IMG/VR virus record: IMGVR_UViG_3300035523_000146
DNA: 64,000 bases
DNA from: a virus
Direction: 5' to 3' (one strand)
Position numbers and translations under genes: made by a program. Of this stretch, positions 12,269 to 25,760 are shown one piece after another. Positions within the stretch are counted from its first letter, which is position 1, and each line of letters starts with the position of its first letter. The notes beneath the pieces are model-generated. The model did not search any database. It had not been told where the DNA came from and saw only the letters and a list, made by a program, of their open reading frames with translations.

Positions 12269-15200
12269 CTACGGGCAGATTTCGATGGTTGGATCACATG
12301 GACACTCGTTGACCGTGGGGTTGCACCAGCTTTGTGCGTAGATGACTACAGGATCCTCTTCGGTGATGTCAATCGTATGGCACCCGTGATCCGTTCCTGG
12401 CGCGAAGTACAGGGAATACGGCAGGTAACCTGCTGAAGTAAAGTCACTGGTATGATAGGCTATGGAAGAGACACCCCCATCGAAGGCCACACCTGCGCTT
12501 CTTATGCTTAACGTGATTTCAATCGAGGGATCGTCCGTGATTAACGGCGTCATCTTGAGGTAGGCCACGCAAACCTTCGTGCCGTCATCAAGCGTATGGT
12601 CCAAGGCGACCGCGGTCCGGGCTGTTGAACAGAACGTAAAGCCCTCGACCACCTGCCACGCGATGATTGGTCCCGCGGGACCGCCCACTCGTGCAACGAG
12701 ACTCGGCCTGTCCGCTCCCTGCGGCGAAAGATTGAGCGCGGCGCCTGTTGCCGTAGTTTCCTTCACAGATATGACCAAAGACGGGCCGCTTCCGGAAAAC
12801 GTAATACTTGAAGTAGCGGCGGGGGGATAGACGCTCGCATCCTTCTGGCGGGTGAAGCCAATTTGGCAGGCGATTGGACCATTGATCCCAACATCGACAA
12901 CGGTAACGCCAAATGTTCCGACGACAACACCGTCAATCAAAGCTGTCGCGACGTATGTGCCTGCGGTGGCGTACGTAAATGGGAACAAGGATCCAGGGGA
13001 TCCAGTAAAGTCCAACGTTCCGTCACCATCAGCATCAATTGCCAAAACATCGCCTGTACCACTTGCGCTAAGCAGCAGGGCGTCGCCCTTGCGAATCACA
13101 ATACTGTCAGAACTCGATTCCTTGGTTGACAGATCGGTCACTTGCCAAGTTACGCATGACGACTTAGCAATTCCGCTCCCTGCGTGGTTGATCGTGATGG
13201 GAGTCGCCGTGCCATCGCTGTTGAGGGGCGCGTTCACGAACCACCCATTGTCGCTGATGAAGGTTGGCGCCAGATCGCCACATGGCGCGGTTACCGTGAG
13301 AGCGTACGGCAAACCGGTCGTGGACCACGCTTGACCTTCGACGAAGGTCGGCGATACGACCGAAGAGCCCGCAATGCTCACGGTCATGCCCGCGCCAGGG
13401 TAAAGTTGTGTTTGCGGGACGACGCTCTTGCTCGTACTGGCGCTGCTCCACAGCAACTGTGCGACGGCAAGACCTGTGTGCTCAAAATATTCAAGCTTGA
13501 TTGGCACCTTTACACCCGCCGTAAGCGAGATTGATGCGCTGGAGTACTCCGTGGACTGATCGCGCCACTCATCTACCACGAGTTGATCTCCCACCCACAG
13601 CCGCACACCATCGTCGCATCGGACGTAGAAAGTATATGCCTCGGAGTATTGCGCCTCAACCTCGCCGATCCAACGAACGGAGAAATTGTCAGGACTAATC
13701 GCTTCATCGGGCGCATTCAAGCCCCAGTCAAAGGCTACAACGGGATCAACTTGCAGGAGCAGTGCCGTGCCAGAAAGGTCACGGGTGTTATAATAGCTTC
13801 CCTGGAGCCCCGTGCCGGTGCCGATCAACATGGCGCTGCCCGTAGAGTAGAGCTGCGTTTGAGGGATCAAGTTCTTTGGCGTTAGCGAACTACTCCAAGC
13901 CAGCCCGGCATTCGCGCCGCCACCGCTCTGGAAGTACTCCATCTTGATATCGTACTTCTGGCCAGCAACAAGCGAGATCGTGCCGCTCCATTCTGTGTTG
14001 CCCTGTAGCTGCCATTTGTCGATCAGCAGTTGCCCATTCACCCACAGCCGCGCACCGTCATCCGTCCAGGTATAGAAGGTGTAGGTGTCCGTGTACTGCG
14101 CTTGGACTTGGCCAACCCACCGCACGGCGAAGTTGTCCCGGCTCACGTTGGCGTCGGGAGCATTGGTATTCCAATCGAAGCCGACCTGCGGATCCACTCG
14201 CGTGACGACTGCCGGAGTTCCCAAGTCCGCGCGATTGAAATACTGCCCAAGCAGACCATCGCCGGTCCCTACAACCATCTTGTTGGAAGTGGAATACAAT
14301 TGGCTTTGCGGGATCACCTGCTTGTCCTGGCTCGGCGATGACCAGAGCAGTTTGGCAACCGAGCCACCCGTGCCCTGAAAATATTCCATTTTAACATCAT
14401 ACTTCTGGCCGGCCTCAAGCGCGATATCGCCTGTGTTTTCTGTCGGCCAATGGGCCGTCCAGTTGTCGATGAGGAGAACATCGTTCACCCAAAGACGCAC
14501 GCCGTCATCCGAGACCGTATAAAAGGAGTACGTTTCCGAGAACTGCGGCTCGACTTGGCCCAGCCAGCGGACGCTGAAACTGGTGCTACTGACGCCAGTG
14601 GCGGGAGTGCCGCCCACCCAATCGAAGTTCACCGTGGCGTCCACTTGGTCGGCGATGACCGGGCCGTTTAGATCGGCGGTGTTGAAATAGTAGCCGGCAA
14701 GTCCATCGCCAGTACCCAAAGGAGGGTTATACGCGGCGAGGGAGACGTTTCTGAATTCGGCCTTGCTGGTCGCAAAATCGCTGCGGTGCGGCGTAACGGC
14801 CATCCCGACGAGAACGGGGTCGGTCAAATTAAGGGTGACGGAGTCGACCGGGAACCACACTACGCCATCGCTGGAAATGTGCCCCGTAATCTGATTGCCG
14901 GCTCTTGTCAGACGCACCCAACTGTTCGGCGCTGAATTCCAGCCACCCGAAGTCGCGCTGGTCTGCGCTGCGACGGTGTCGCGGTGCTGGAAGACAAACC
15001 CATTTCCGGCGCTCGCTAACATAATGGCGTTGACGCTGTTGCGGTCGCTTGACTGCCGCACCATGAGGCCCGCTTTGGCCCAGCCATCTGAGTTTTCAAG
15101 GGATGCGATACGGGCGCGAATGTCGAAATTGCCTGAGTAGGATTGCGACACAAAGCGGAAAGCGTCCTGCGTGCCCCAGATGTCGTCGCCCACGCCGACC

Positions 15201-15328
15201 ACGTCGTAGCTCGCTGCGTCGATCTGTGTGGTTGACCCGCCTGGAATGTCTTGAGAGCTAAACTCGCCAGCGCAAACGGCGAGTGCCAAAACGCAGCAAG
15301 TGCAAACGGCAAGTGAAGGCAGTCTCAT
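12269..15328 (-). CDS. Secreted protein with lectin-like N-domain, three PA14 domains and a Cys-containing tail
   Basis: Signal peptide; three copies of FSVRWxGQV...YTFY..SDDG.RLWV; DADGDGTLD Ca-binding-like motif. Confidence 0.9.
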   Translation of the reverse strand: MRLPSLAVCTCCVLALAVCAGEFSSQDIPGGSTTQIDAASYDVVGVGDDIWGTQDAFRFVSQSYSGNFDIRARIASLENSDGWAKAGLMVRQSSDRNSVNAIMLASAGNGFVFQHRDTVAAQTSATSGGWNSAPNSWVRLTRAGNQITGHISSDGVVWFPVDSVTLNLTDPVLVGMAVTPHRSDFATSKAEFRNVSLAAYNPPLGTGDGLAGYYFNTADLNGPVIADQVDATVNFDWVGGTPATGVSSTSFSVRWLGQVEPQFSETYSFYTVSDDGVRLWVNDVLLIDNWTAHWPTENTGDIALEAGQKYDVKMEYFQGTGGSVAKLLWSSPSQDKQVIPQSQLYSTSNKMVVGTGDGLLGQYFNRADLGTPAVVTRVDPQVGFDWNTNAPDANVSRDNFAVRWVGQVQAQYTDTYTFYTWTDDGARLWVNGQLLIDKWQLQGNTEWSGTISLVAGQKYDIKMEYFQSGGGANAGLAWSSSLTPKNLIPQTQLYSTGSAMLIGTGTGLQGSYYNTRDLSGTALLLQVDPVVAFDWGLNAPDEAISPDNFSVRWIGEVEAQYSEAYTFYVRCDDGVRLWVGDQLVVDEWRDQSTEYSSASISLTAGVKVPIKLEYFEHTGLAVAQLLWSSASTSKSVVPQTQLYPGAGMTVSIAGSSVVSPTFVEGQAWSTTGLPYALTVTAPCGDLAPTFISDNGWFVNAPLNSDGTATPITINHAGSGIAKSSCVTWQVTDLSTKESSSDSIVIRKGDALLLSASGTGDVLAIDADGDGTLDFTGSPGSLFPFTYATAGTYVATALIDGVVVGTFGVTVVDVGINGPIACQIGFTRQKDASVYPPAATSSITFSGSGPSLVISVKETTATGAALNLSPQGADRPSLVARVGGPAGPIIAWQVVEGFTFCSTARTAVALDHTLDDGTKVCVAYLKMTPLITDDPSIEITLSIRSAGVAFDGGVSSIAYHTSDFTSAGYLPYSLYFAPGTDHGCHTIDITEEDPVVIYAQSWCNPTVNECPCDPTIEICP

Positions 15329-15947
15329 GAGAACCTCCTAAGCAGTTGCCCAGCCTTTGGGGATCATTGTCTGAATAGAAAATACACATTTAATGAACTA
15401 TAAAATATCACTGGAGTGCACAATGTCAACACAGAAACCTCAAGAAAAGTCGTGGAGTTGCAAGTATTGGCGCTAGCGTAACTTGCGTGAGGCCATGCGG
15501 CTTTGTAGTCGCACCTGGCGGCTGCAAATTACGCCTGAACTGAGGTTACCCGCGACTTGGAGAAAGACTCCTCAACGGCGATGCGATGCCATTTTGTCAT
15601 GCGGGCGGGGCTGTATCCTGAATCAAGGTTGGCGCGTTTCGCAAACGCGGCTCGCAGAACTCACCAGCACGCCACGCTGACTACTGGTTCTGTGGCTGCC
15701 GACAGGCTGGTTCGGAGGAGTTCGGCGCCTGGATCTTGGCCGACATTTACAGAGGTCCAACTGGATTTCGGTTTACGGTTTTAGGATTCTTGTTACGGAC
15801 CGATCACGCGGCCGCCGCGATGGCGCTCGATCGACGTAGTCGAGCGCCATCGCAAATTTTCTCTTGGTCTGACCGCTCCAAAGCCGTATAGAGGTGCAGG
15901 TCTGCGCAACGTTTTCTGAGCCGATTTTACCGGCGGGAGATTGCCGC

Positions 15948-16801
15948 GTGCCCGTTGAAGTCAAACCGTTGTTCCGGCCAGATGTGCTGCGCTCGCATCT
16001 CTCTGCGTTCCGCATGCCTGGTCGGCTGGGGAACGGCTCAGCGCTGCGGAACAAGGTCGCGCATTGGGCCGAGCTTGTTTCCTCCGGGCGTGCGGACGCC
16101 TTCAAAGAGCGCGAAATCCTGCCTGACTTCCTGACCGATCTCTTCGGCGGCGTGCTCGGCTGCACAAGCCCGGCCGAGAACGCCGACCGCTACACGCTCT
16201 CTCGGGAGCAGATTTGTTCCTGCTGGCAGTTCTGAAGTCACCGTTGATCTGGTGGCACAACTGGCGCTACCTGCCGCACATGAAAGATGAGGCTCTCTCG
16301 CCAACCGGCGTGAAGATAGAGGCGTTCCCCGTCGCGAAGCCCAGCGCGCAGGCGCGCGCCGCAGCCGAGGAGAACGTCGCGCGGCTGATCGACATCACGA
16401 AGGCGCAGCAGTCCGCCACGCGCGAACTGCTGGACTGGCTGCGCGTCGAACATGAAGTCGCCAAGCCCAGTCTGCGGCTGCAGGCGCCGGCGGAACTGTC
16501 GAGCGATGAGTTCGTCAGCGAGGGGAAGAAGGCGCGCGGCAAGAAATGCCTGATCGCCGCCGGCCTCAAGAGCCTGCGTGACGAGTACACGCGCTTGATT
16601 GTGCCGATGCAGATCTGCGCGGCCGAAGCGCTGGACCTGGAGCGGGCCTTGAGCGCCAGCGTCAATGCTGCCTACGGCCTCACCCCCGCCGATGAAAAGC
16701 TCCTCAGGCAAACCGCCCCGCCGCGGATGCCCATCGGCTCCCAAGCCCCAGCGACGCTGCAGCAATCGGCCGCCAACAGGACATCAGATTTCAGCGCCTG
16801 A
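15948..16801 (+). pseudogene. Internally deleted type IIG (Eco57I-like) restriction-modification gene
   Basis: N-terminal fragment (VKPLFRPDVL...EILPDFL) joined out of frame near 16210 to a typical C-terminal end (LAVLKSPLIWW...AYGLTP); no methyltransferase motifs. Confidence 0.7.
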
Positions 16802-16860: not shown

Positions 16861-18561
16861 CTACCGCGCAAACTCCAAAAACGGCAGTTCGCCAGTCCGA
16901 CGGTCAGTGCAGGACGCCGCCACCTTCTCATCGATTCCCCACTTTGATGGGTACTTGGGCGTATCAAGGGGCTCCAATGAAGGCCGAAACTTCTGCTTTA
17001 TCCGCGTGCGACCAAACAGCCCAGAAACTTCCGGGTGCCGCACCCTCGCGTACTTGCTAATCTCGCAGAACAGATTCTGACAATCGATGTATTGCAGTGG
17101 CCGCCCCCAAAGCGTCTGGAATTCAAGGCCGCGCTCAGAAAACTCGGATTCCTGGCGTTCGCATACCAGCTTGATGATTTCGGTCTCATTGAGTCCGCCC
17201 AACGAGTCGAAGCACTTGCGGATGCCGTCCCGAGCTCCAGGACCCGGAACGACGAATTCCCTCTCGGAGAAATCTGTTACCGAGCTGTAGTTGATGTCGG
17301 TGACGTATTGATATGCAAGAAAGTCTCCGATCATGGGGTAATCGCGCAGCAACAAGAAAGCCTCAGACATCCTGCGGCAATCTGCTAGCCGCATCGGCAA
17401 CTCATCACGTAGCATTCGCTGGAGAAGAATTAGAAATGAGCGATGCTTCCTTCCGCCATCGGCGTCACGATCTCCCGACGGCATAATGTATGCGGCCGAA
17501 AAAATCCTGCGCCCGGATTCAAGAGCGCTCGTCAAGATTCTGTCGTAGCGTTTGAAATCAAACTCCGCTGCGCTGATCGCCCCCAACTTGCTTTTGATCA
17601 GCCGCCACGTTTCGATCTTATTGAATATCTTGAACAAAAGCACCCTGAACACGACTTCGTTGATGTGCTGGCTTCCTTCATCAATGACGTAACGAATAAG
17701 GAACTGGCTCGCACGATCCGAAGCCCTATAGGCGTTTGTAAACTTGTTGACCGCCAGGATCGGATCTTCGGTCCATGGCGGCGGTGTGCCACGGAGACGC
17801 CGGAAAAAGATCGCTTGTCGTTCCGTGGCAAACCGCCAGAAGGTATCGTACACCAACGTTGTTTTTGCCGGAGCCAGGGAACTGAATCCGTATGGCGCGT
17901 GCGCCCGCTCCGCAGGCGATGCCTCCCGGCAATTTGTTGCGACGCGATTGGCGCCGCCACTGTCAACGGGAGACGCAGCGCGCAAGATCTGCGCAAATGC
18001 ATCCTGTATCGTGTGGTTGTTGTCCACCGAAACGACGAGGTAATTTTTCGCCTCGCGCCGAGCGAGTGCCTCGTATGCCGTTTGGAGCCGGATCCAGAGA
18101 TCCTCTTTTTCTGGTCGCAGTGGCACTCCCCGTTGAATAACGAAGACGGCTGTGGGTTTCAGATCGCCCCACGCTTCGAGTTCCAAGTCGATGAGTTTCC
18201 GCAGGAGCGAAGCATTGGCGCCTCCCACCACGCCGTATACTTCCGTGGACCACCAGAATCTATCCAGGACAACACTGCGGCCTTCAGTCAGCGCTGGGAT
18301 AATGCTGCGCTGGATGGTATCCAGATGCGCGGCCACATGAAGCATCTGCAGGATAGCGGGATCGAATTGCTTTATCCCAAATCTGCCAGGATCATGGTGC
18401 AGATCGTATACGTGCTTTCCGAGAGTTCCTGGATCGCGCCCAGGAAAACTCAGCGCCAAAGAAGCGATGTCGGATCGTGCCAAATAGTCCGAGAACCGCT
18501 TGCACAGCTCCGACTTGCCAACACCGTCCGGACCTTCGAAAACGTAAAGCCGTCCTGTCAC
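16861..18561 (-). CDS. Thymidylate-kinase-like domain fused to a 5-hmdU DNA kinase helical-type (aGPT-pyrophosphorylase clade 1) domain
   Basis: VFEGPDGVGKS P-loop and VLDRFWWS (dTMP kinase); FWRFATERQAIF...PPPWTEDPIL...FTNAYRASDR is the helical-domain signature. Confidence 0.85.
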   Translation of the reverse strand: MTGRLYVFEGPDGVGKSELCKRFSDYLARSDIASLALSFPGRDPGTLGKHVYDLHHDPGRFGIKQFDPAILQMLHVAAHLDTIQRSIIPALTEGRSVVLDRFWWSTEVYGVVGGANASLLRKLIDLELEAWGDLKPTAVFVIQRGVPLRPEKEDLWIRLQTAYEALARREAKNYLVVSVDNNHTIQDAFAQILRAASPVDSGGANRVATNCREASPAERAHAPYGFSSLAPAKTTLVYDTFWRFATERQAIFFRRLRGTPPPWTEDPILAVNKFTNAYRASDRASQFLIRYVIDEGSQHINEVVFRVLLFKIFNKIETWRLIKSKLGAISAAEFDFKRYDRILTSALESGRRIFSAAYIMPSGDRDADGGRKHRSFLILLQRMLRDELPMRLADCRRMSEAFLLLRDYPMIGDFLAYQYVTDINYSSVTDFSEREFVVPGPGARDGIRKCFDSLGGLNETEIIKLVCERQESEFSERGLEFQTLWGRPLQYIDCQNLFCEISKYARVRHPEVSGLFGRTRIKQKFRPSLEPLDTPKYPSKWGIDEKVAASCTDRRTGELPFLEFAR

Positions 18562-19349
18562 GCCGTCGTCTCCTGGGAGCGGAGAATCGCGCGCAGATCT
18601 GTCGCGAAGTCCTGAAGATCCTCTTTACTCCGCCGCCCACGCGCGCCGACAGAAGCGACACATGTAAGCTGCGTCAGCCGAAGTCCCATTCGAGCGGCCA
18701 TGAACTTCCCAAGTCGGCATAGGCCGAGGTAGTTGCCGTATGCGCGTTCGAAGAAGAACTGGGTCGCGTAAAAACCGGTTACGCACAAGCCGTCCTGACC
18801 GACTGGTGCGAAGTTCACCTGCTGAAGACAAGGAAAGCCCAACTGTCGATTATTGCTGTGGTCGCGCGTCGGATCAAAAACCGATGCGATGAGGGCACTA
18901 CGACGATGATTTCCGCTGCGGTACGTGTCTACAATGTGCGTTAGCTGATCGACGGGCTTCAGGACTGAGTCTTCCGGCTGGTATGCTGTGAGACGCCTGA
19001 AGTAGACGCCGTACTTATTCGCCGGGCATTTCTTGATCATCGCCCAGATCCGTCCATACCGTCCCAACACGTGTGCTCCTCCATCGTCCAGCGACGGGTT
19101 CCACAACGAAATCGGAAAAATCGTGTTGGCGACCGTGTGGCACTTAGCTCGCTCGAAACGCTCTAGCTCCTTGTCCAACCGCTCACGGATCGCATCATTT
19201 TCTATGGCGGTACCGTTATCGAAAGCATGGACACGTACAATTAGCGGAGTCAGCTCGTCGATGCCGGGCTCCATCAGCCGCAGAAAGGCCTGTGCCCATG
19301 CCACTGACAAATTCGTGCTTGAGGGAATAAACCAGTCACTCGCCATCAC
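18558..19349 (-). CDS. Divergent thymidylate-synthase-fold protein
   Basis: YFRRL...DQL..IV, SVFDP, GFPCLQQV (catalytic Cys) and YGNY; lacks RSND and the terminal HxY. Confidence 0.7.
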   Translation of the reverse strand: MMASDWFIPSSTNLSVAWAQAFLRLMEPGIDELTPLIVRVHAFDNGTAIENDAIRERLDKELERFERAKCHTVANTIFPISLWNPSLDDGGAHVLGRYGRIWAMIKKCPANKYGVYFRRLTAYQPEDSVLKPVDQLTHIVDTYRSGNHRRSALIASVFDPTRDHSNNRQLGFPCLQQVNFAPVGQDGLCVTGFYATQFFFERAYGNYLGLCRLGKFMAARMGLRLTQLTCVASVGARGRRSKEDLQDFATDLRAILRSQETTA

Positions 19350-20199
19350 TCACCTCTTCCTCAAAGCGGTACACGGCTCGTCCCGCGTAATCCTTGCGTG
19401 ACACGCGAACAAAGCTTGCCCATGGTCCTGCCGCAAGTCGGCCAATCCCAGTCGTAACGGCGCGAAGGACGACGCGCGCGCTATTGCGTTCCACGATCTC
19501 CGTACAACGCCCCTCAAACAGAACATCCGGCGGCGCGCAAACCAGATCGCCCACTTCCAGATCAATTGCTCTGCCGACCCAATTGGTGTCCGCCACAACG
19601 AGGTTATTTCGGCACTCAGCCCCGAGTATTCTGCCTCGCAAATCCAATGGCTGGTTTCTGAGCAGTTCCTCTGCACGCGTGCGGTTGATCAGTCCCAGGC
19701 TGATGCACATATGATTGACCAATGTGCCGAAGCCCACACCGAAGTAAGTAGCGATCACGTAAACGGCTTCGGGACAACACGAACCAGCGGTCAACTTCCT
19801 TACGGCAAAAGCTCTTGAGACCGCCGCTTTCGGCATCAGGAGCTCGCCAGCAAAGCAGTTGGCCACGTACTCATCGGGATCATTCCGGCGTAACGTGCTT
19901 CGTTCTTCCACGAGCTCGTCGAATTGGGCACCGTGCCCAAAGACGTGGTGTCCGAGCTCATGCGCCGCGTTGAATGCACGTCTGCCAGGCGGACGAAGTG
20001 CCGATACCAGCACGATTGGCATCACTCCATTTGGGAAATATATCCCCTCCATGGATGGGAGAGCCTCGAACCGAACGTCCACGCCAACCTTGGCGGCAAG
20101 GTCAAAGACGCAGCCGGGATTGGCGCAGCTCCAACCGTGCTCAGAGCGGAGTCTCAGTGCCTTTGCAATGGCGGCTCGCGCAAACACGCTGCGATTCAC
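19336..20199 (-). CDS. ImmA/IrrE-family metallopeptidase
   Basis: RRAFNAAHELGH (HExxH) and EYVANCFAGELLMP. Confidence 0.92.
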   Translation of the reverse strand: MNRSVFARAAIAKALRLRSEHGWSCANPGCVFDLAAKVGVDVRFEALPSMEGIYFPNGVMPIVLVSALRPPGRRAFNAAHELGHHVFGHGAQFDELVEERSTLRRNDPDEYVANCFAGELLMPKAAVSRAFAVRKLTAGSCCPEAVYVIATYFGVGFGTLVNHMCISLGLINRTRAEELLRNQPLDLRGRILGAECRNNLVVADTNWVGRAIDLEVGDLVCAPPDVLFEGRCTEIVERNSARVVLRAVTTGIGRLAAGPWASFVRVSRKDYAGRAVYRFEEEVSDGE

Positions 20200-20549
20200 T
20201 CTTTCTCCTTCGGCTTGCGCAGCATGCGAAGCGTACTTAGCAGCCGGTCGAGATCCTCGTCCTTCATTCTGCTGAGCTCACGTGCAGCTATGAGGATACG
20301 GTCTTCCACAGATTCCTTTTCGCCCCAGTCCCCTCCGGTGAGCCAATTTACGCTGACCCCGTACATCTCGGCAAATGCTGCAAGTTCCTCGGCACTAACG
20401 GCGCGACGGCCGGCCTCAATCTCCGATACAGATGGACGATGCAAATCCATCTTCTTTGCAGCTTGCCCCTGTGATAAGCCAGCAGCTTCACGCGCAGATC
20501 GCAGACGACTCGCGATCAACTCGCGCTTTTCATGGTCCCGTCCTGGCAC
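20196..20549 (-). CDS. XRE-family HTH transcriptional regulator
   Basis: LRSAREAAGLSQGQAA...VSEIEAGRR; overlaps the IrrE-like gene start. Confidence 0.92.
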   Translation of the reverse strand: MPGRDHEKRELIASRLRSAREAAGLSQGQAAKKMDLHRPSVSEIEAGRRAVSAEELAAFAEMYGVSVNWLTGGDWGEKESVEDRILIAARELSRMKDEDLDRLLSTLRMLRKPKEKE

Positions 20550-20552
20550 ACT

Positions 20553-20828
20553 TCACCTCACAGTCATCAACTGAGCCAGCCGTTCAGCTATCTGTTCGAC
20601 GCGTACTGGCTTGCTTTTCTTGTCAAGACAAAGGTTGTCTTCAGGGATATCGATCCCGAGCTGCGTCCTGAGCTCCACGGTTACCTCCATCCCGTTCAAA
20701 CTGTCAAATTCGAGTAGGTCTGTCAGAGGGCAAGTGGCAGGGCCAATCTCAGATGGTGGCCGGCCCGACATTTCCTGGTAATGACCAATAACCTCAATTA
20801 CCAGAGCAAGTAGCTGCGCGCTCGACAT
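20553..20828 (-). CDS. Acyl carrier protein-like
   Basis: 91 aa from ATG 20828 with AGGAGG RBS; FDSLNGMEV phosphopantetheine-site motif in helical context. Confidence 0.75.
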   Translation of the reverse strand: MSSAQLLALVIEVIGHYQEMSGRPPSEIGPATCPLTDLLEFDSLNGMEVTVELRTQLGIDIPEDNLCLDKKSKPVRVEQIAERLAQLMTVR

Positions 20829-20926: not shown

Positions 20927-21937
20927 ATGTTCCACGCATTTGAGGGCCATACCGCCGAGGAAGTCTATGATGGGATCCTTTCAACATTCCGCACGCCGGG
21001 ACAGATTGGCTTCCAGCCGAGCCGCGCTGGCGACACCCAGGAGTTGCTGCATGCAACAATCTCAATCGCCGATCCTCGTCAACGTTGGTTGGCTTCCCGC
21101 ACACCTGCACTGAACCCGGCTTTCGCCATTGCGGAAGCGATCTGGATCCTGCGCGGTCGAAACGACTCGCGCTTCCTTACATTCTTCAATAGCGAATTGC
21201 CGAAGTTCGCCGGCGTGGGCCCAACATTTTACGGAGCCTACGGGCACCGGCTTCGGCGAAACTTGGGCATTGACCAACTGGAGCGCGCTTTCCACGCGCT
21301 TAAGAACAACCCGGAATCGCGACAGGTAGTACTGCAGATTTGGGACGCCGAGCAGGATTTTCCAGACGAAGCCGGAGCGCCAAAGGCGGAAGACATTCCG
21401 TGTAATCTGCTTTCCATGCTGAAGGTAAGAGACGGTGCCCTGGAGTGGACGCAGGTGATTCGCAGCAACGATGTCTATCGCGGACTTCCGTACAACCTCG
21501 TGCAATTCACCACTCTGCAGGAGGTGATGGCCGGTTGGCTCGGCTTGAAGCTCGGAAGCTACAATCAGCTCAGTGACAGCCTGCACGTTTATGCGCGAGA
21601 CTTGAAGGCAGTTGTCAGTTCGGCGGGTGTTCAAGCGCAGGCGAACGAGGACAACTTGAGTCTTCCGAAGGCGGAATCCGATCGGGTCTTCGCTGCAATG
21701 GAAAAACACGTCGAAACGCTGATCAACAATGAGCGCGGTTCCGCGGCGCCCACCGAGATCGTAAAGAGGCGCGATCTTCCCCAGCCGTACAGAAACATGA
21801 TCTGCGTTCTATCCGCCGAAGCTGCACGGCGAGCCAGATTGGCCACTGTCGCGACCGAGATAATGGCCGAGTGCTCGAATCCGGTCTTTTGCCAATTATT
21901 CGAGCGCTGGTGCAAGCGGTTCAAGAAGGCGGGCTAA
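20927..21937 (+). CDS. Thymidylate synthase / dUMP hydroxymethylase-family protein
   Basis: AYGHRLR, DQL...SRQVVLQIWD, DIPCN (catalytic Cys), RSNDVYRGLPYN, SLHVY. Confidence 0.9.
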   Translation: MFHAFEGHTAEEVYDGILSTFRTPGQIGFQPSRAGDTQELLHATISIADPRQRWLASRTPALNPAFAIAEAIWILRGRNDSRFLTFFNSELPKFAGVGPTFYGAYGHRLRRNLGIDQLERAFHALKNNPESRQVVLQIWDAEQDFPDEAGAPKAEDIPCNLLSMLKVRDGALEWTQVIRSNDVYRGLPYNLVQFTTLQEVMAGWLGLKLGSYNQLSDSLHVYARDLKAVVSSAGVQAQANEDNLSLPKAESDRVFAAMEKHVETLINNERGSAAPTEIVKRRDLPQPYRNMICVLSAEAARRARLATVATEIMAECSNPVFCQLFERWCKRFKKAG

Positions 21938-22086: not shown

Positions 22087-23025
22087 TTATGTGCCGACCT
22101 TTTTCTTTGCAGAGACGTCAAATATTTCGTCGGTCAACATGGATTCGAGCCGATCGTTATTCAGCAATTTCAGGATCAACTCCACATTCTCTTCGGTTGT
22201 TATGATCTTGTCGCCGTCAAACGTCACTGGCCAACCTTGCGCAGTGCATACCAATTTCAGGTTTGCCATGAAATCAGGTTGCTTATAATAGCCATTCTTC
22301 TTAATCATGGCCATCCGACGAAGGAAATTCAACCGCACACCGGTCGCGCTCCGGATCACCTCGACGTCATCGATCAGTCCCGAACTATGAAGCTCCCGCA
22401 AGAGATCATCCCGACTTCTCTCCATACCCGCACGAAAATTCATCGCCGCCTCAAACTTCTTCTTATCCAAGACGAACACCAGACCATCGTATGCAAAGAA
22501 ATCAATCTTCTTCTCCAGCTTGAAGATCTGGTCTTCAGCAACATCCATGAGAATGTGGTCGCGAAAAACGGCGTTAAGGGTCCGTCCCTTCTGCTTCAAC
22601 TTCCAGCCTTCGGGGATCTTATGAACTGCCAGAATGCGTTCGCTCTGCGCTTCCATGGCAATCGCATAAGCCCAGGAGTCGTAAAGTTGGTCCGCTGACG
22701 TTACCGACGGAGCAGCACTGCCCTCGGCGATTTGGTCGTAGATGGCCTGAAGGTCAGTTTCTGGCATCCTAAGGCCTACTGCTTCACCGGTATCAAGTTC
22801 TTCCGAGAGGAACTCATAGGGCTCAACGTGGTTAGCGGATCTTACCGCAGACGACACGATGTCCGAGAGTTTTCGCTGCAGTGCAGCTTCCGTCCGGACT
22901 GCGAGGGCATCATACTTGGCGACACCCGCGCGCATACCGCGTTTGATCACCCACAGGTTCGCGTGCGCGCGTGCAAACGACAAGGCTTGCAGTTTCTTCA
23001 GGCTCTTCGTCAGTGCCGATATCAT
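22087..23025 (-). CDS. kwaB: Kiwa KwaB-like (DUF4868) protein
   Basis: IFKLEKKIDFF...FEAAMNF core typical of DUF4868; coupled downstream of a TM partner gene. Confidence 0.75.
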   Translation of the reverse strand: MISALTKSLKKLQALSFARAHANLWVIKRGMRAGVAKYDALAVRTEAALQRKLSDIVSSAVRSANHVEPYEFLSEELDTGEAVGLRMPETDLQAIYDQIAEGSAAPSVTSADQLYDSWAYAIAMEAQSERILAVHKIPEGWKLKQKGRTLNAVFRDHILMDVAEDQIFKLEKKIDFFAYDGLVFVLDKKKFEAAMNFRAGMERSRDDLLRELHSSGLIDDVEVIRSATGVRLNFLRRMAMIKKNGYYKQPDFMANLKLVCTAQGWPVTFDGDKIITTEENVELILKLLNNDRLESMLTDEIFDVSAKKKVGT

Positions 23026-23576
23026 TGGGCTTTCTCTCCTGTAGGAACGATGTAGAGGAAAGGCGATAACCGCTCCATCTTGTATTCCTTGCCCTGCGCC
23101 AACTCGATTTTCGACAGAAATATGCCTGTCCGCGGCTTGCCGGACTCCTCAAATTCGACTTCATACAGACCCCAGCCGAGCAGCGCAAGAAAAGGGTTAA
23201 GGAATATACTCTGCGTCCTGATAGCAAGAACAAGCAGTATTCCCAGAAACATCAGCAGCGCAGAGATGTCCTGCCACTTGCCGAAATCTACGCTAAAGAA
23301 CGACACTACGTAGGGGATGGAATACGCCGCGAGGTCATTTGACCGCAGGGATACACGTTTCGTCGTAATGAGGAATTGGCCGCGGCAACAACTCATTGCT
23401 GCGAAAAGCAGAACTCCGCTGGCAACGGCGACAGTAAACGCAGAGTAGACGAAGACGCTGTTCTTAAAGCAGTCCTGTTTTTCATCAAAGTCGCGTATCG
23501 CGAAAAGCAACGCGAGCGGCGCATACGCGCTCACCGCGATTGCCGCTGCGAACCCGAGGCGCGGTTTCATAAGCAA
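23022..23576 (-). CDS. kwaA: Kiwa KwaA-like membrane protein
   Basis: Several TM helices; YSIPYVVSF and IFLNPFLALLGWGLYEV; 4-bp overlap with the kwaB-like gene. Confidence 0.7.
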   Translation of the reverse strand: MLMKPRLGFAAAIAVSAYAPLALLFAIRDFDEKQDCFKNSVFVYSAFTVAVASGVLLFAAMSCCRGQFLITTKRVSLRSNDLAAYSIPYVVSFFSVDFGKWQDISALLMFLGILLVLAIRTQSIFLNPFLALLGWGLYEVEFEESGKPRTGIFLSKIELAQGKEYKMERLSPFLYIVPTGEKAQ

Positions 23577-24087: not shown

Positions 24088-24257
24088 AATCTTAATCCTG
24101 CGCTATATTCATAGGTGATATTAGGAACAGTCAAGCTCTTTACTCACAGGAGTTTCACATTTGCGCTATCCAGTTCGGAGCCGTCAGATGTTATCCATAT
24201 TTTGTCTATTGCGTGCGCTGTTTCGATTGGTATAACTCGCTATTTGAGGCGTTAACC

Positions 24258-25760
24258 ATGATTTTTGACCGAAAGGATCTATATCGAGTTCCACGCGTAG
24301 CTCCCACTCCGGAGAAGAGCTCCTTTAAGCGGCAATCTCTGCGACCTTACTCCGCATCCGGACGCCCGGGATGGCTTGTTAAGTGGACCAATCCACATGG
24401 AAGACGTTCGACGGCTTCTCTCAGTACGCGCGACGAGACCGAAGCGAAAGCCGTCGCGCTTGACCTCGAACGCCTTCTCAACGACCCGACGTACTGGGAC
24501 ATCAAGGATGGCGATCCCAGATGCGTTCATTTCCATCCCAGAGCACTCGAAATCTTCTGCCGGCGCCCGGCGCGAGCGTGTCCATCGACGGCGGCTGTCT
24601 CTGAGGACGCAATCCAGTTCTTCCGGACGATGCCATCCGATTGGAGCCCTAAGAGCTGGTACATCCCTGTTCCGGAACTCAACGAACTTCGCATCGAGCT
24701 TGCCAACAAGGAACGCATGGTCGCCAGACTTGAGCAGGAAAAAGAAGTGTGGAATCGCGAACGCATGGAACTCCGCAAGCGCCTAAACAAACACTGCACA
24801 GCCACAATGAGCGAGGCGCTTGAAGAATTCGAGAGATACTACCGCAACGGACATGCTCCAGAAACGGTGAGTCAAGTCTTGCGCGTGAATCGTCAGTTGG
24901 CTGAAGCTGTGGGCATGGATACTCTGGCTGGCCTCGTTACCGGCGCCGAGATCAATCAACTTCTGTACAACTACACTAACGCCGGGCGCAAAGTCTGCCA
25001 ACGAACGCGCAGACGGGTAAAGGCGTATCTGTCTACCTTCTGGTCTTGGGCTGTCCGCCAATACGAACTAAACGGAAATCCCATCGCTCACGTCCACGTG
25101 ATCCCTGCTGGCGCGCCTGAGTCAATTGAGGCGGTGAGGAGCTTTCAGGATCTAACGACCATGGTCAGTGCACTTGCTGACCGTCCGTATTGGCAAGCTT
25201 GGGTTGCGGTCGCCACCCTGGCCGGTCCTCGCTGGGGAGAACAGGCGGCCATCAGGATCGCAGACGTGAATCTCAATGATGGCTACATCCGCATTGCCGG
25301 ATCAATCACTGGCCGCGGCACAAAGACAGGAAGACAACGCAACGTTCCGATTGAACGGACCACTCTTATGCCCATCCTTAAGAAATTCATGGCGGACGAG
25401 CCGCATCGAAATGGGCTGCTCTTCCCTTCGATCAGCGCTGGACACGGCGCAACGAAGGACGGGCTCTGGCGGGCACAGACGTGGCACAAGTATTGGTTTG
25501 GCGGCCACAATCCCGACGGAGAATTTGTGCAGGGTATATCACAGGCTTTGCGTGCGAAACGTGATGCGTACTTTTGGGAATATGGACCAAGGGAATGGCG
25601 CCATTGCGCCGGAACCGCCATGGGTCACGCCGGAATGTCGACCCTGCGCATTTCCCAGTGGCTTGGCAATAGCGAAGCGATTTGCCGTCGTCACTACGTC
25701 GCTCCCAGTGGAGCAGCTAGCTGGCCCCTCAAATGGACAGTGAACCCATACATTGAGTAG
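24258..25760 (+). CDS. Tyrosine integrase
   Basis: TLAGPRWGE (R), TKTG (K), PREWRH, WLGNS, RRHY (Y); stop codon overlaps the tRNA-Pro fragment. Confidence 0.9.
   Translation: MIFDRKDLYRVPRVAPTPEKSSFKRQSLRPYSASGRPGWLVKWTNPHGRRSTASLSTRDETEAKAVALDLERLLNDPTYWDIKDGDPRCVHFHPRALEIFCRRPARACPSTAAVSEDAIQFFRTMPSDWSPKSWYIPVPELNELRIELANKERMVARLEQEKEVWNRERMELRKRLNKHCTATMSEALEEFERYYRNGHAPETVSQVLRVNRQLAEAVGMDTLAGLVTGAEINQLLYNYTNAGRKVCQRTRRRVKAYLSTFWSWAVRQYELNGNPIAHVHVIPAGAPESIEAVRSFQDLTTMVSALADRPYWQAWVAVATLAGPRWGEQAAIRIADVNLNDGYIRIAGSITGRGTKTGRQRNVPIERTTLMPILKKFMADEPHRNGLLFPSISAGHGATKDGLWRAQTWHKYWFGGHNPDGEFVQGISQALRAKRDAYFWEYGPREWRHCAGTAMGHAGMSTLRISQWLGNSEAICRRHYVAPSGAASWPLKWTVNPYIE

Follow-up and report, generated by a model that had tools for sequence, protein, structure and literature searches.

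The 64,000-nucleotide stretch of DNA analysed here, virus record IMGVR_UViG_3300035523_000146 (hereafter the window), carries on its minus strand a gene for a thymidylate synthase (TS)-fold protein, which we refer to as TSL. The open reading frame (ORF) is a real gene. Rather than being a TS copy in decay, TSL is a conserved enzyme and the signature of a gene cassette that is widespread, under the control of a switch and probably anti-phage. The gene is as follows:

18558-19349, minus strand: TSL, a TS-fold protein of 263 residues from GTG 19349, or 262 residues from ATG 19346

The ATG at 19346 is the likely start rather than the GTG one codon earlier; it is preceded by an AGAGG box, and the 262-residue protein is the database form P0001. 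The 5′ end of the gene overlaps the stop codon of the upstream CapP-like M78 peptidase gene, and its own stop codon overlaps the start of the downstream kinase-HMUDK_hel gene as GTGA. Overlapped on both sides, it is thus part of a tightly packed operon. Within the protein, FPCL occupies residues 172-175, YATQ residues 194-197 and YGN residues 204-206. The C-terminus lies 57 residues past Asn206, compared with 87 past Asn177 in Escherichia coli ThyA, and there is no His-x-Tyr strand. An earlier note on this DNA, made from the sequence alone, had described exactly these motifs (FPCL and YGN retained, RSND replaced by YATQ, HxY lost); all of these observations were confirmed.

The predicted fold of TSL

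The structure of TSL was modelled with AlphaFold2 from an input alignment of 50 sequences, giving a predicted local distance difference test (pLDDT) score of 95.8 and a predicted template modelling (pTM) score of 0.93. The model has the TS alpha/beta fold. An exhaustive structural scan placed seven TS-family chains at VIA Z scores of 17.2-11.3, with the next, unrelated chain at 4.2. The top match, at Z 17.2 and a root mean square deviation of 3.1 over 206 residues, was the flavin-dependent dCMP monooxygenase 9iqc from a phage, followed among others by MilA (Z 15.4) and Brucella ThyA (Z 15.2); T4 dCMP hydroxymethylase was the lowest of the seven (Z 11.3). Among the Foldseek matches listed, all but one were named thymidylate synthase, DHFR-TS fusion or pyrimidine-nucleotide hydroxylase or hydroxymethylase, the sole exception being an entry titled riboflavin-dependent monooxygenase with dCMP and FAD. 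Foldseek probabilities were mostly 1.00, including those of the thymidylate synthase chains that head the list. The predicted fold is therefore unambiguously TS-like, as the earlier note had supposed.

At the level of sequence the relationship is distant. TSL had no Pfam match at the gathering threshold, PF00303 included, and one of 50 family members matched PF00303 at E 0.016. TIGR03283 gave E 1.3e-10 at 41 bits, under its cut-off of 174.55, and phrog_5131 gave E 5.9e-6. None of the PADLOC models matched TSL, and searches of PDB sequences, with the TSL profile or with the single sequence, retrieved no TS. BLASTP between TSL and the neighbouring 336-residue TS (TS336) gave E 6.7, so the two TS-fold proteins of the window are not close paralogues; a recent duplication of TS336 as the origin of TSL is ruled out by the same value.

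Residue conservation and the active site

The TSL family comprises 2474 homologues, or 936 representatives at the 50% identity level. Residues were counted in an alignment of 262 relatives. Cys174, Tyr116 and Gln135 are present in 262/262, Arg119 and Asp163 in 261/262 each, and Asn206 and Arg149 in 258/262 each, while position 202 is basic (Arg or Lys) in 258/262. Cys174, Tyr116, Asn206, Arg119 and Asp163 are kept even in clades that are only 25-30% identical. Conservation on this scale indicates that the family is under strong constraint, which makes the earlier note's term "degenerate paralog" a misnomer on both counts, given the lack of close similarity to TS336. A pseudogene or decaying copy is ruled out by the invariant residues. 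The cysteine that the earlier note had taken to be catalytic holds up in every one of the relatives.

Cys174, in the F-P-C motif, pairs with Cys146 of E. coli ThyA in both hhalign runs. In the ungapped register, Tyr116 would correspond to Tyr94 and Arg149 to a residue of the Arg126/127 type. Asn206 is probably equivalent to Asn177, the ThyA residue that reads O4/N3 of uracil; this assignment, favoured by about three to one, is based on the ungapped alignment and matching secondary structure. The spacing from Cys to Asn is 32 residues in TSL versus 31 in ThyA, the strands of the hairpin are of equal length, and the helix after the hairpin aligns without gaps, with Asn206 near its start.

Other parts of the canonical site were not found. 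Of the arginines of the phosphate clamp, TSL keeps only Arg149: the position matched to Arg166 holds Ala, Pro, Gly or Thr, with Arg not among its five commonest residues, that matched to Ser167 holds Thr, Met or Leu, and the Arg21 loop has no conserved Arg. At the folate site, the position matched to Asp169 holds Tyr, Leu, Phe or His, with Asp likewise absent from the five commonest residues, and the C-terminal lid is missing. The His207/Tyr209 strand that binds the 3′-OH is replaced by Ala/Gly-type residues in the window's clade. Distant TSL clades retain Thr-His where ThyA has Thr206-His207, and the loss of the 3′-OH contact may therefore be clade-specific. In addition, the family has invariant residues of its own (Arg119, Asp163 and Arg/Lys202). 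Whichever register is adopted, the core that activates the pyrimidine survives, and the folate site has gone, together with the majority of the canonical contacts to phosphate and sugar.

Relation to known TS-fold enzymes

TSL shares with ThyA (E. coli b2827, PF00303) its fold, the equivalents of Cys146 and Tyr94, probably that of Asn177, and one Arg126/127-type residue. However, the two are only about 12% identical, and TSL has no equivalents of Arg21, Arg166, Ser167, Asp169, His207 or Tyr209. Furthermore, ThyA is the product of a housekeeping gene, whereas TSL is encoded in a repressed mobile cassette.

There is precedent within the TS superfamily for a switch of cofactor from folate to flavin (PMC13326640). 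The flavin-dependent dCMP 5-hydroxylases (HY126 AfhB, PDB 9iqc/9iqu; RB69 gp48) resemble TSL in being short TS-fold proteins and include its best structural match. They are phage-encoded and are marked by the changes Asn177 to Asp and Asp169 to Asn (PMC13326640), whereas TSL keeps the Asn and has Tyr, Phe, Leu or His at the 169 position. As this signature is absent, a role for TSL as a 5-hydroxy-dCMP synthase was rejected. T4 gp42 dCMP hydroxymethylase, MilA CMP hydroxymethylase and the phage dUMP hydroxymethylases have the fold in common with TSL and carry out Cys-dependent C5 chemistry. These enzymes are folate-dependent and keep Asp169, Arg166, His207/Tyr209 and an Asp or Glu at position 143, all of which TSL lacks. 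Their signature is matched exactly by the neighbouring TS336.

The TS fold is among the best-studied of enzyme scaffolds, and its switch from folate to flavin was shown only recently. A third branch without a folate site and with new invariant residues would extend the chemistry of the fold, and the TSL branch is a sizeable one.

A conserved cassette around TSL

Homologues were sought in a set of one genome per species (185,579 species), in which 337 stretches matched. Gene order was counted in 80 loci drawn from these, with downstream counts made on the 78 that had enough sequence; a complete TS was looked for within 8 kb. TSL relatives occur in Planctomycetota, Pseudomonadota, Chloroflexota, Acidobacteriota, Actinomycetota and other phyla, and the order ACP-like carrier, CapH-like repressor, CapP-like protease, TSL and HMUDK_hel is near-invariant across the 80 loci. 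In the window, the genes around TSL are:

16861-18561, minus strand: dTMP-kinase-like P-loop domain fused to HMUDK_hel, 566 residues (PF02223, E 7.8e-12; PF18723, E 1.7e-105)
19336-20199, minus strand: CapP-like ImmA/IrrE (M78) metallopeptidase, 287 residues (PF06114, E 3.8e-17; PADLOC capP, E 4.9e-18)
20196-20549, minus strand: CapH-like XRE helix-turn-helix repressor, 117 residues (HTH_3 and HTH_31, E about 1e-15; PADLOC capH, E 1.2e-11)
20553-20828, minus strand: small ACP-like carrier, 91 residues from an internal ATG, the first gene of the operon (PP-binding, E 1.1e-5)
20927-21937, plus strand, divergent: TS336, a complete TS-family enzyme, 336 residues (PF00303, E 3.2e-21; phrog_5131, E 6.3e-65)

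The CapP-like gene is directly upstream of the TSL gene in 77/80 loci, and HMUDK_hel is encoded by the next gene after TSL in 78/78. The ACP-like gene was detected by tblastn in 68/80 loci; the Ser of its DSL motif, the phosphopantetheine site, is the sole residue of the carrier that is invariant across all cassette variants.

Adjacent genes for an XRE repressor and an M78 protease, overlapping and immediately upstream, are the arrangement seen in CapH/CapP-controlled operons (CBASS and others), to which the PADLOC capH and capP matches also point. This repressor-protease pair is kept in 77/80 loci. Those operons control a cyclase and an effector, whereas here the switch precedes nucleotide-modifying enzymes and is itself preceded by the ACP-like gene.

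The cassette occurs in several forms. The 49 "long" loci encode a deoxynucleoside monophosphate (dNMP) kinase, which in 40 of them forms an in-frame fusion with HMUDK_hel. A complete TS was found in 38 loci, and in 33 of these its gene comes right after that for kinase-HMUDK_hel. The 29 "short" loci (of 78) have neither the dNMP kinase nor the complete TS. On the TSL tree, long forms are intermingled with short ones, and the commonest residues are the same in both at the TSL positions examined. Frequent extras, by their Pfam names, are MazG with MazG_C, a dCTP-deaminase-like protein (DCD), a radical SAM/SPASM enzyme, a ThsB-type TIR protein and Nmad2.

A minimal form in two prophages consists of the ACP-like, CapH, CapP, TSL and MazG/MazG_C genes, with HMUDK_hel absent. 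This minimal cassette is a moron inserted between the terminase and portal genes; on the two viral contigs concerned (L083:6345-9573 and L084:3507-6732) its neighbours are the portal gene and, on the side of the large terminase gene, a DUF1643 gene adjacent to the latter. In plasmids of sphingomonads and Acuticoccus, the ACP-like, HTH, ImmA, C1 peptidase and TSL genes are faced by a UDG-superfamily gene and MazG/MazG_C; in this plasmid clade the UDG-superfamily gene stands in place of HMUDK_hel. This distant clade on alphaproteobacterial plasmids (L087:2862-8538 and L088:2678-7614; 25-28% identity) has a papain-like C1 peptidase before TSL and a longer MazG/MazG_C protein, and one of its copies has a dCTP deaminase gene just before. 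A linear plasmid of Streptomyces has MazG and HMUDK_hel on opposite sides. TSL and the small ACP-like carrier are the only non-regulatory constants across all of these variants.

The cassette is mobile, being carried by conjugative plasmids and as prophage morons, and is mostly chromosomal. Of 20 plasmid records, 12 are conjugative. A set of 2.9 million viral contigs yielded no more than 4 loci, each with the same CapH/CapP-type switch, and no match to the TSL family was found in 50,697 cultured phage genomes.

The complete TS and the kinase-HMUDK_hel protein

TS336 has the motifs IPC, RSND and HVY, in agreement with the earlier note, which had credited the divergent protein with all the TS motifs. 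Its family keeps the equivalents of the six residues Cys146, Arg166, Ser167, Asp169, His207 and Tyr209 in 38/38 sequences. Asn177 is kept in 37/38, and Leu143 is changed to Asp in 38/38. By the signature rules of PMC13326640, we infer from these residues that TS336 is a dUMP hydroxymethylase rather than a methylase.

The HMUDK_hel domain (16864-17889, minus strand), whose Pfam name is helical domain of 5-hmdU DNA kinase (PF18723), is kinase-free in 29/78 loci. A model of this C-terminal domain (pLDDT 88.9) matched the queuosine-5′-phosphate glycosylase QNG1/DUF2419 at Z 10.9 and the phage PaMx11 gp46 5-PmdU glycinyltransferase at Z 10.3, the latter being also the top Foldseek match (E 0.019). 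About 20 helix-hairpin-helix (HhH) DNA glycosylases followed at Z 5-9. These Z values are moderate for helical proteins, and the list of modelled matches is a coherent one. Dozens of polar residues are invariant in the domain, so that it is likely to be an enzyme whose substrate is a modified base, either in DNA or on a nucleotide. Its modelled fold is HhH-glycosylase-like, and the domain probably works as an independent enzyme.

A probable role in anti-phage defence

The closest validated system is DS-4 ('NTTI'; DefensePredictor, Science 2026), which is experimentally anti-phage in E. coli and consists of five genes encoding TS, dNMP kinase, HMUDK_hel, TIR and Nmad2 (PMC13092281). The cassette shares the full TS, the dNMP kinase and HMUDK_hel with DS-4, and TIR and Nmad2 accompany some related loci. 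However, DS-4 has no TSL, ACP or CapH/CapP switch, and neither TIR nor Nmad2 is encoded in the window. Our literature searches found no description of the TSL family or of the cassette, and the topics HMUDK_hel/PF18723 and CapH/CapP with TS gave only DefensePredictor; an earlier description is possible.

In the window the cassette is adjoined by Kiwa, encoded by KwaB (PADLOC E 1.4e-96) and KwaA (E 2.5e-46) at 22087-23576 on the minus strand, with a tyrosine-recombinase-type integrase beyond it at 24213-25760 on the plus strand. The ten large upstream neighbours sampled in other genomes included SIR2-fused prokaryotic Argonaute (pAgo), MADS mad2 and a type I restriction endonuclease (3/10), and an AbiE toxin gene lies beside one plasmid copy. 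On chromosome 1 of the cultured strain Paraburkholderia xenovorans LB400 (L009:2854-6042), the cassette directly adjoins a SIR2-fused short pAgo. By analogy with DS-4 and from this setting, the role of the cassette is probably anti-phage. The function of TSL, once worked out, would explain a class of defence that turns the thymine-modification toolkit of phages against them, and might yield a new modified nucleotide or a DNA-labelling chemistry.

What TSL may do

We put a probability of roughly 0.5 on TSL being an infection-induced enzyme that needs no folate and whose cysteine acts on uracil nucleotides. In such a scheme, the CapP-like protease would remove the CapH-like repressor on infection or DNA damage, and TSL would be made only then. 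Its Cys would attack C6 of the pyrimidine, with the Tyr94-type residue as base and the Asn reading a uracil- or thymine-type ring, and the protein would perform folate-independent C5/C6 chemistry on, or covalently capture, a uracil-type deoxynucleotide. Together with the kinase, MazG/MazG_C, the dCTP-deaminase-like protein, the hydroxymethylase-type TS and the glycosylase-like partner, TSL would spoil either the supply of pyrimidines to a replicating phage or that phage's DNA. We favour a reaction that does without folate and has a uracil-type deoxynucleotide as its substrate, because all of the variable partners are nucleotide-pool enzymes or have base-excising folds. The earlier note had offered three options for TSL, namely altered chemistry or substrate, a heterodimer partner, and a nucleotide sensor. 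The first of these fits best, since TSL retains the residues that activate the pyrimidine and has lost its contacts to folate, phosphate and the 3′-OH; the heterodimer fails as a general role, and the sensor is less likely.

Several points weigh against this proposal. In profile-profile comparison TSL is only weakly similar to TS (hhalign E 0.014 against the family of the neighbouring TS and 0.12 against E. coli ThyA), which makes the residue equivalences around 194-206 ambiguous, and hhalign offers a rival register that pairs Arg/Lys202 with Arg166 and deletes Asn177. The ungapped register is nevertheless favoured, as the rival one requires two compensating 7-residue indels and clashes with the secondary structure prediction. 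TSL lacks three of the four arginines that canonically bind phosphate, and the ligand may thus not be a 5′-nucleotide at all. The ACP-like carrier could perhaps be part of the regulatory switch rather than of the chemistry. Lastly, the suggested defence role is drawn from the genomic setting and from the analogy with a system in which TSL is absent, and no universal downstream killing effector is evident in the cassette.

The main rival to a reaction on free nucleotides is a reaction on DNA. The HhH-glycosylase-like partner would present a flipped-out pyrimidine to TSL, which would attack it and either modify it or form a covalent protein-DNA adduct that blocks phage replication. The contacts that TSL has lost are those for a free 5′-phosphate (Arg21, Arg166, Ser167) and a free 3′-OH (His207, Tyr209), and both groups are esterified in DNA. 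Its constant partner is similar to DNA glycosylases and to the 5-PmdU glycinyltransferase, which acts on DNA, and a UDG-superfamily gene substitutes for that partner in one clade. However, none of the fold matches listed for TSL is described as DNA-acting, the only partner in the minimal prophage form is MazG/MazG_C, a nucleotide-level enzyme, and QNG1, the best fold match of the HMUDK_hel partner, acts on a free nucleotide. On balance, we regard action on DNA as doubtful, though deserving to be weighed ahead of the other alternatives.

A slightly less probable, and in our view rather unlikely, alternative is that TSL, without catalysing a reaction, serves as a nucleotide sensor or regulatory subunit that binds dUMP, 5-hmdUMP or a phage nucleotide and controls the partner enzymes. 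The loss of many canonical catalytic-site residues is consistent with such a role, as are the constant proximity of TSL to regulatory genes and the finding that the commonest residues at the positions examined are the same whichever accessory enzymes are present. It is less likely than a catalytic role because the Cys nucleophile and the Tyr94 equivalent are both invariant (262/262), which would be unexpected in a protein that only binds; moreover, in the known paradigm the CapP-like protease already acts as the sensor.

The constancy of the ACP-like carrier also invites a more specific chemistry. Because the carrier and TSL are the sole non-regulatory genes constant across the variants, the carrier might replace folate: after attack by Cys174 on C6 of a deoxyuridine nucleotide, the C5 carbanion or exocyclic methylene would react with the phosphopantetheine thiol or its cargo. 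A new C5-substituted pyrimidine nucleotide would be formed, which the cassette kinase would feed into phage DNA, and the HhH-glycosylase-like partner would excise the modified base, leaving the DNA poisoned and then cut. As a whole, this sequence of steps is a speculative one, about as improbable as the sensor.

A further alternative, for which we see little chance, is that the cassette is a self-DNA hypermodification module that protects the mobile element's own DNA rather than the host. Phages use the same types of enzyme for thymidine hypermodification (PMC8989533), and some copies of the cassette are in prophages and plasmids. Nonetheless, TSL is absent from the cultured phage genomes and the cassette is mostly chromosomal, in defence islands. 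Its switch is of the damage-type repressor/protease kind, not one of constitutive or replication-linked expression, and the proteins of the window include no phage-type 5-HMUDK P-loop and no match to the Pfam family aGPT-Pplase.

TS enzymes function only as dimers, whose subunits share active sites, and TSL could on that account be the obligate heterodimer partner of the complete TS, supplying or poisoning half of a shared site, for which the presence of both genes in the window and of the Arg126/127-type Arg149 in 258/262 relatives might argue; yet this is very improbable, given that the complete TS is missing within 8 kb in 29/78 loci and from the prophage and plasmid variants, that five short-variant genomes have no TS336 orthologue anywhere (housekeeping-type matches at 26-31% identity, or none), and that the TSL residues examined do not vary with the presence of a complete TS.

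Other features of the window

Just downstream of the cassette, at 15894-16801 on the plus strand, are two short overlapping ORFs that resemble the remnants of a broken larger gene; the ORF at 16214-16801 had no Pfam match. Further along, an ORF of 1019 residues (12269-15328, minus strand), unrelated to the cassette, has a hydrophobic N-terminal stretch and three near-repeats of a module of ~140 residues.

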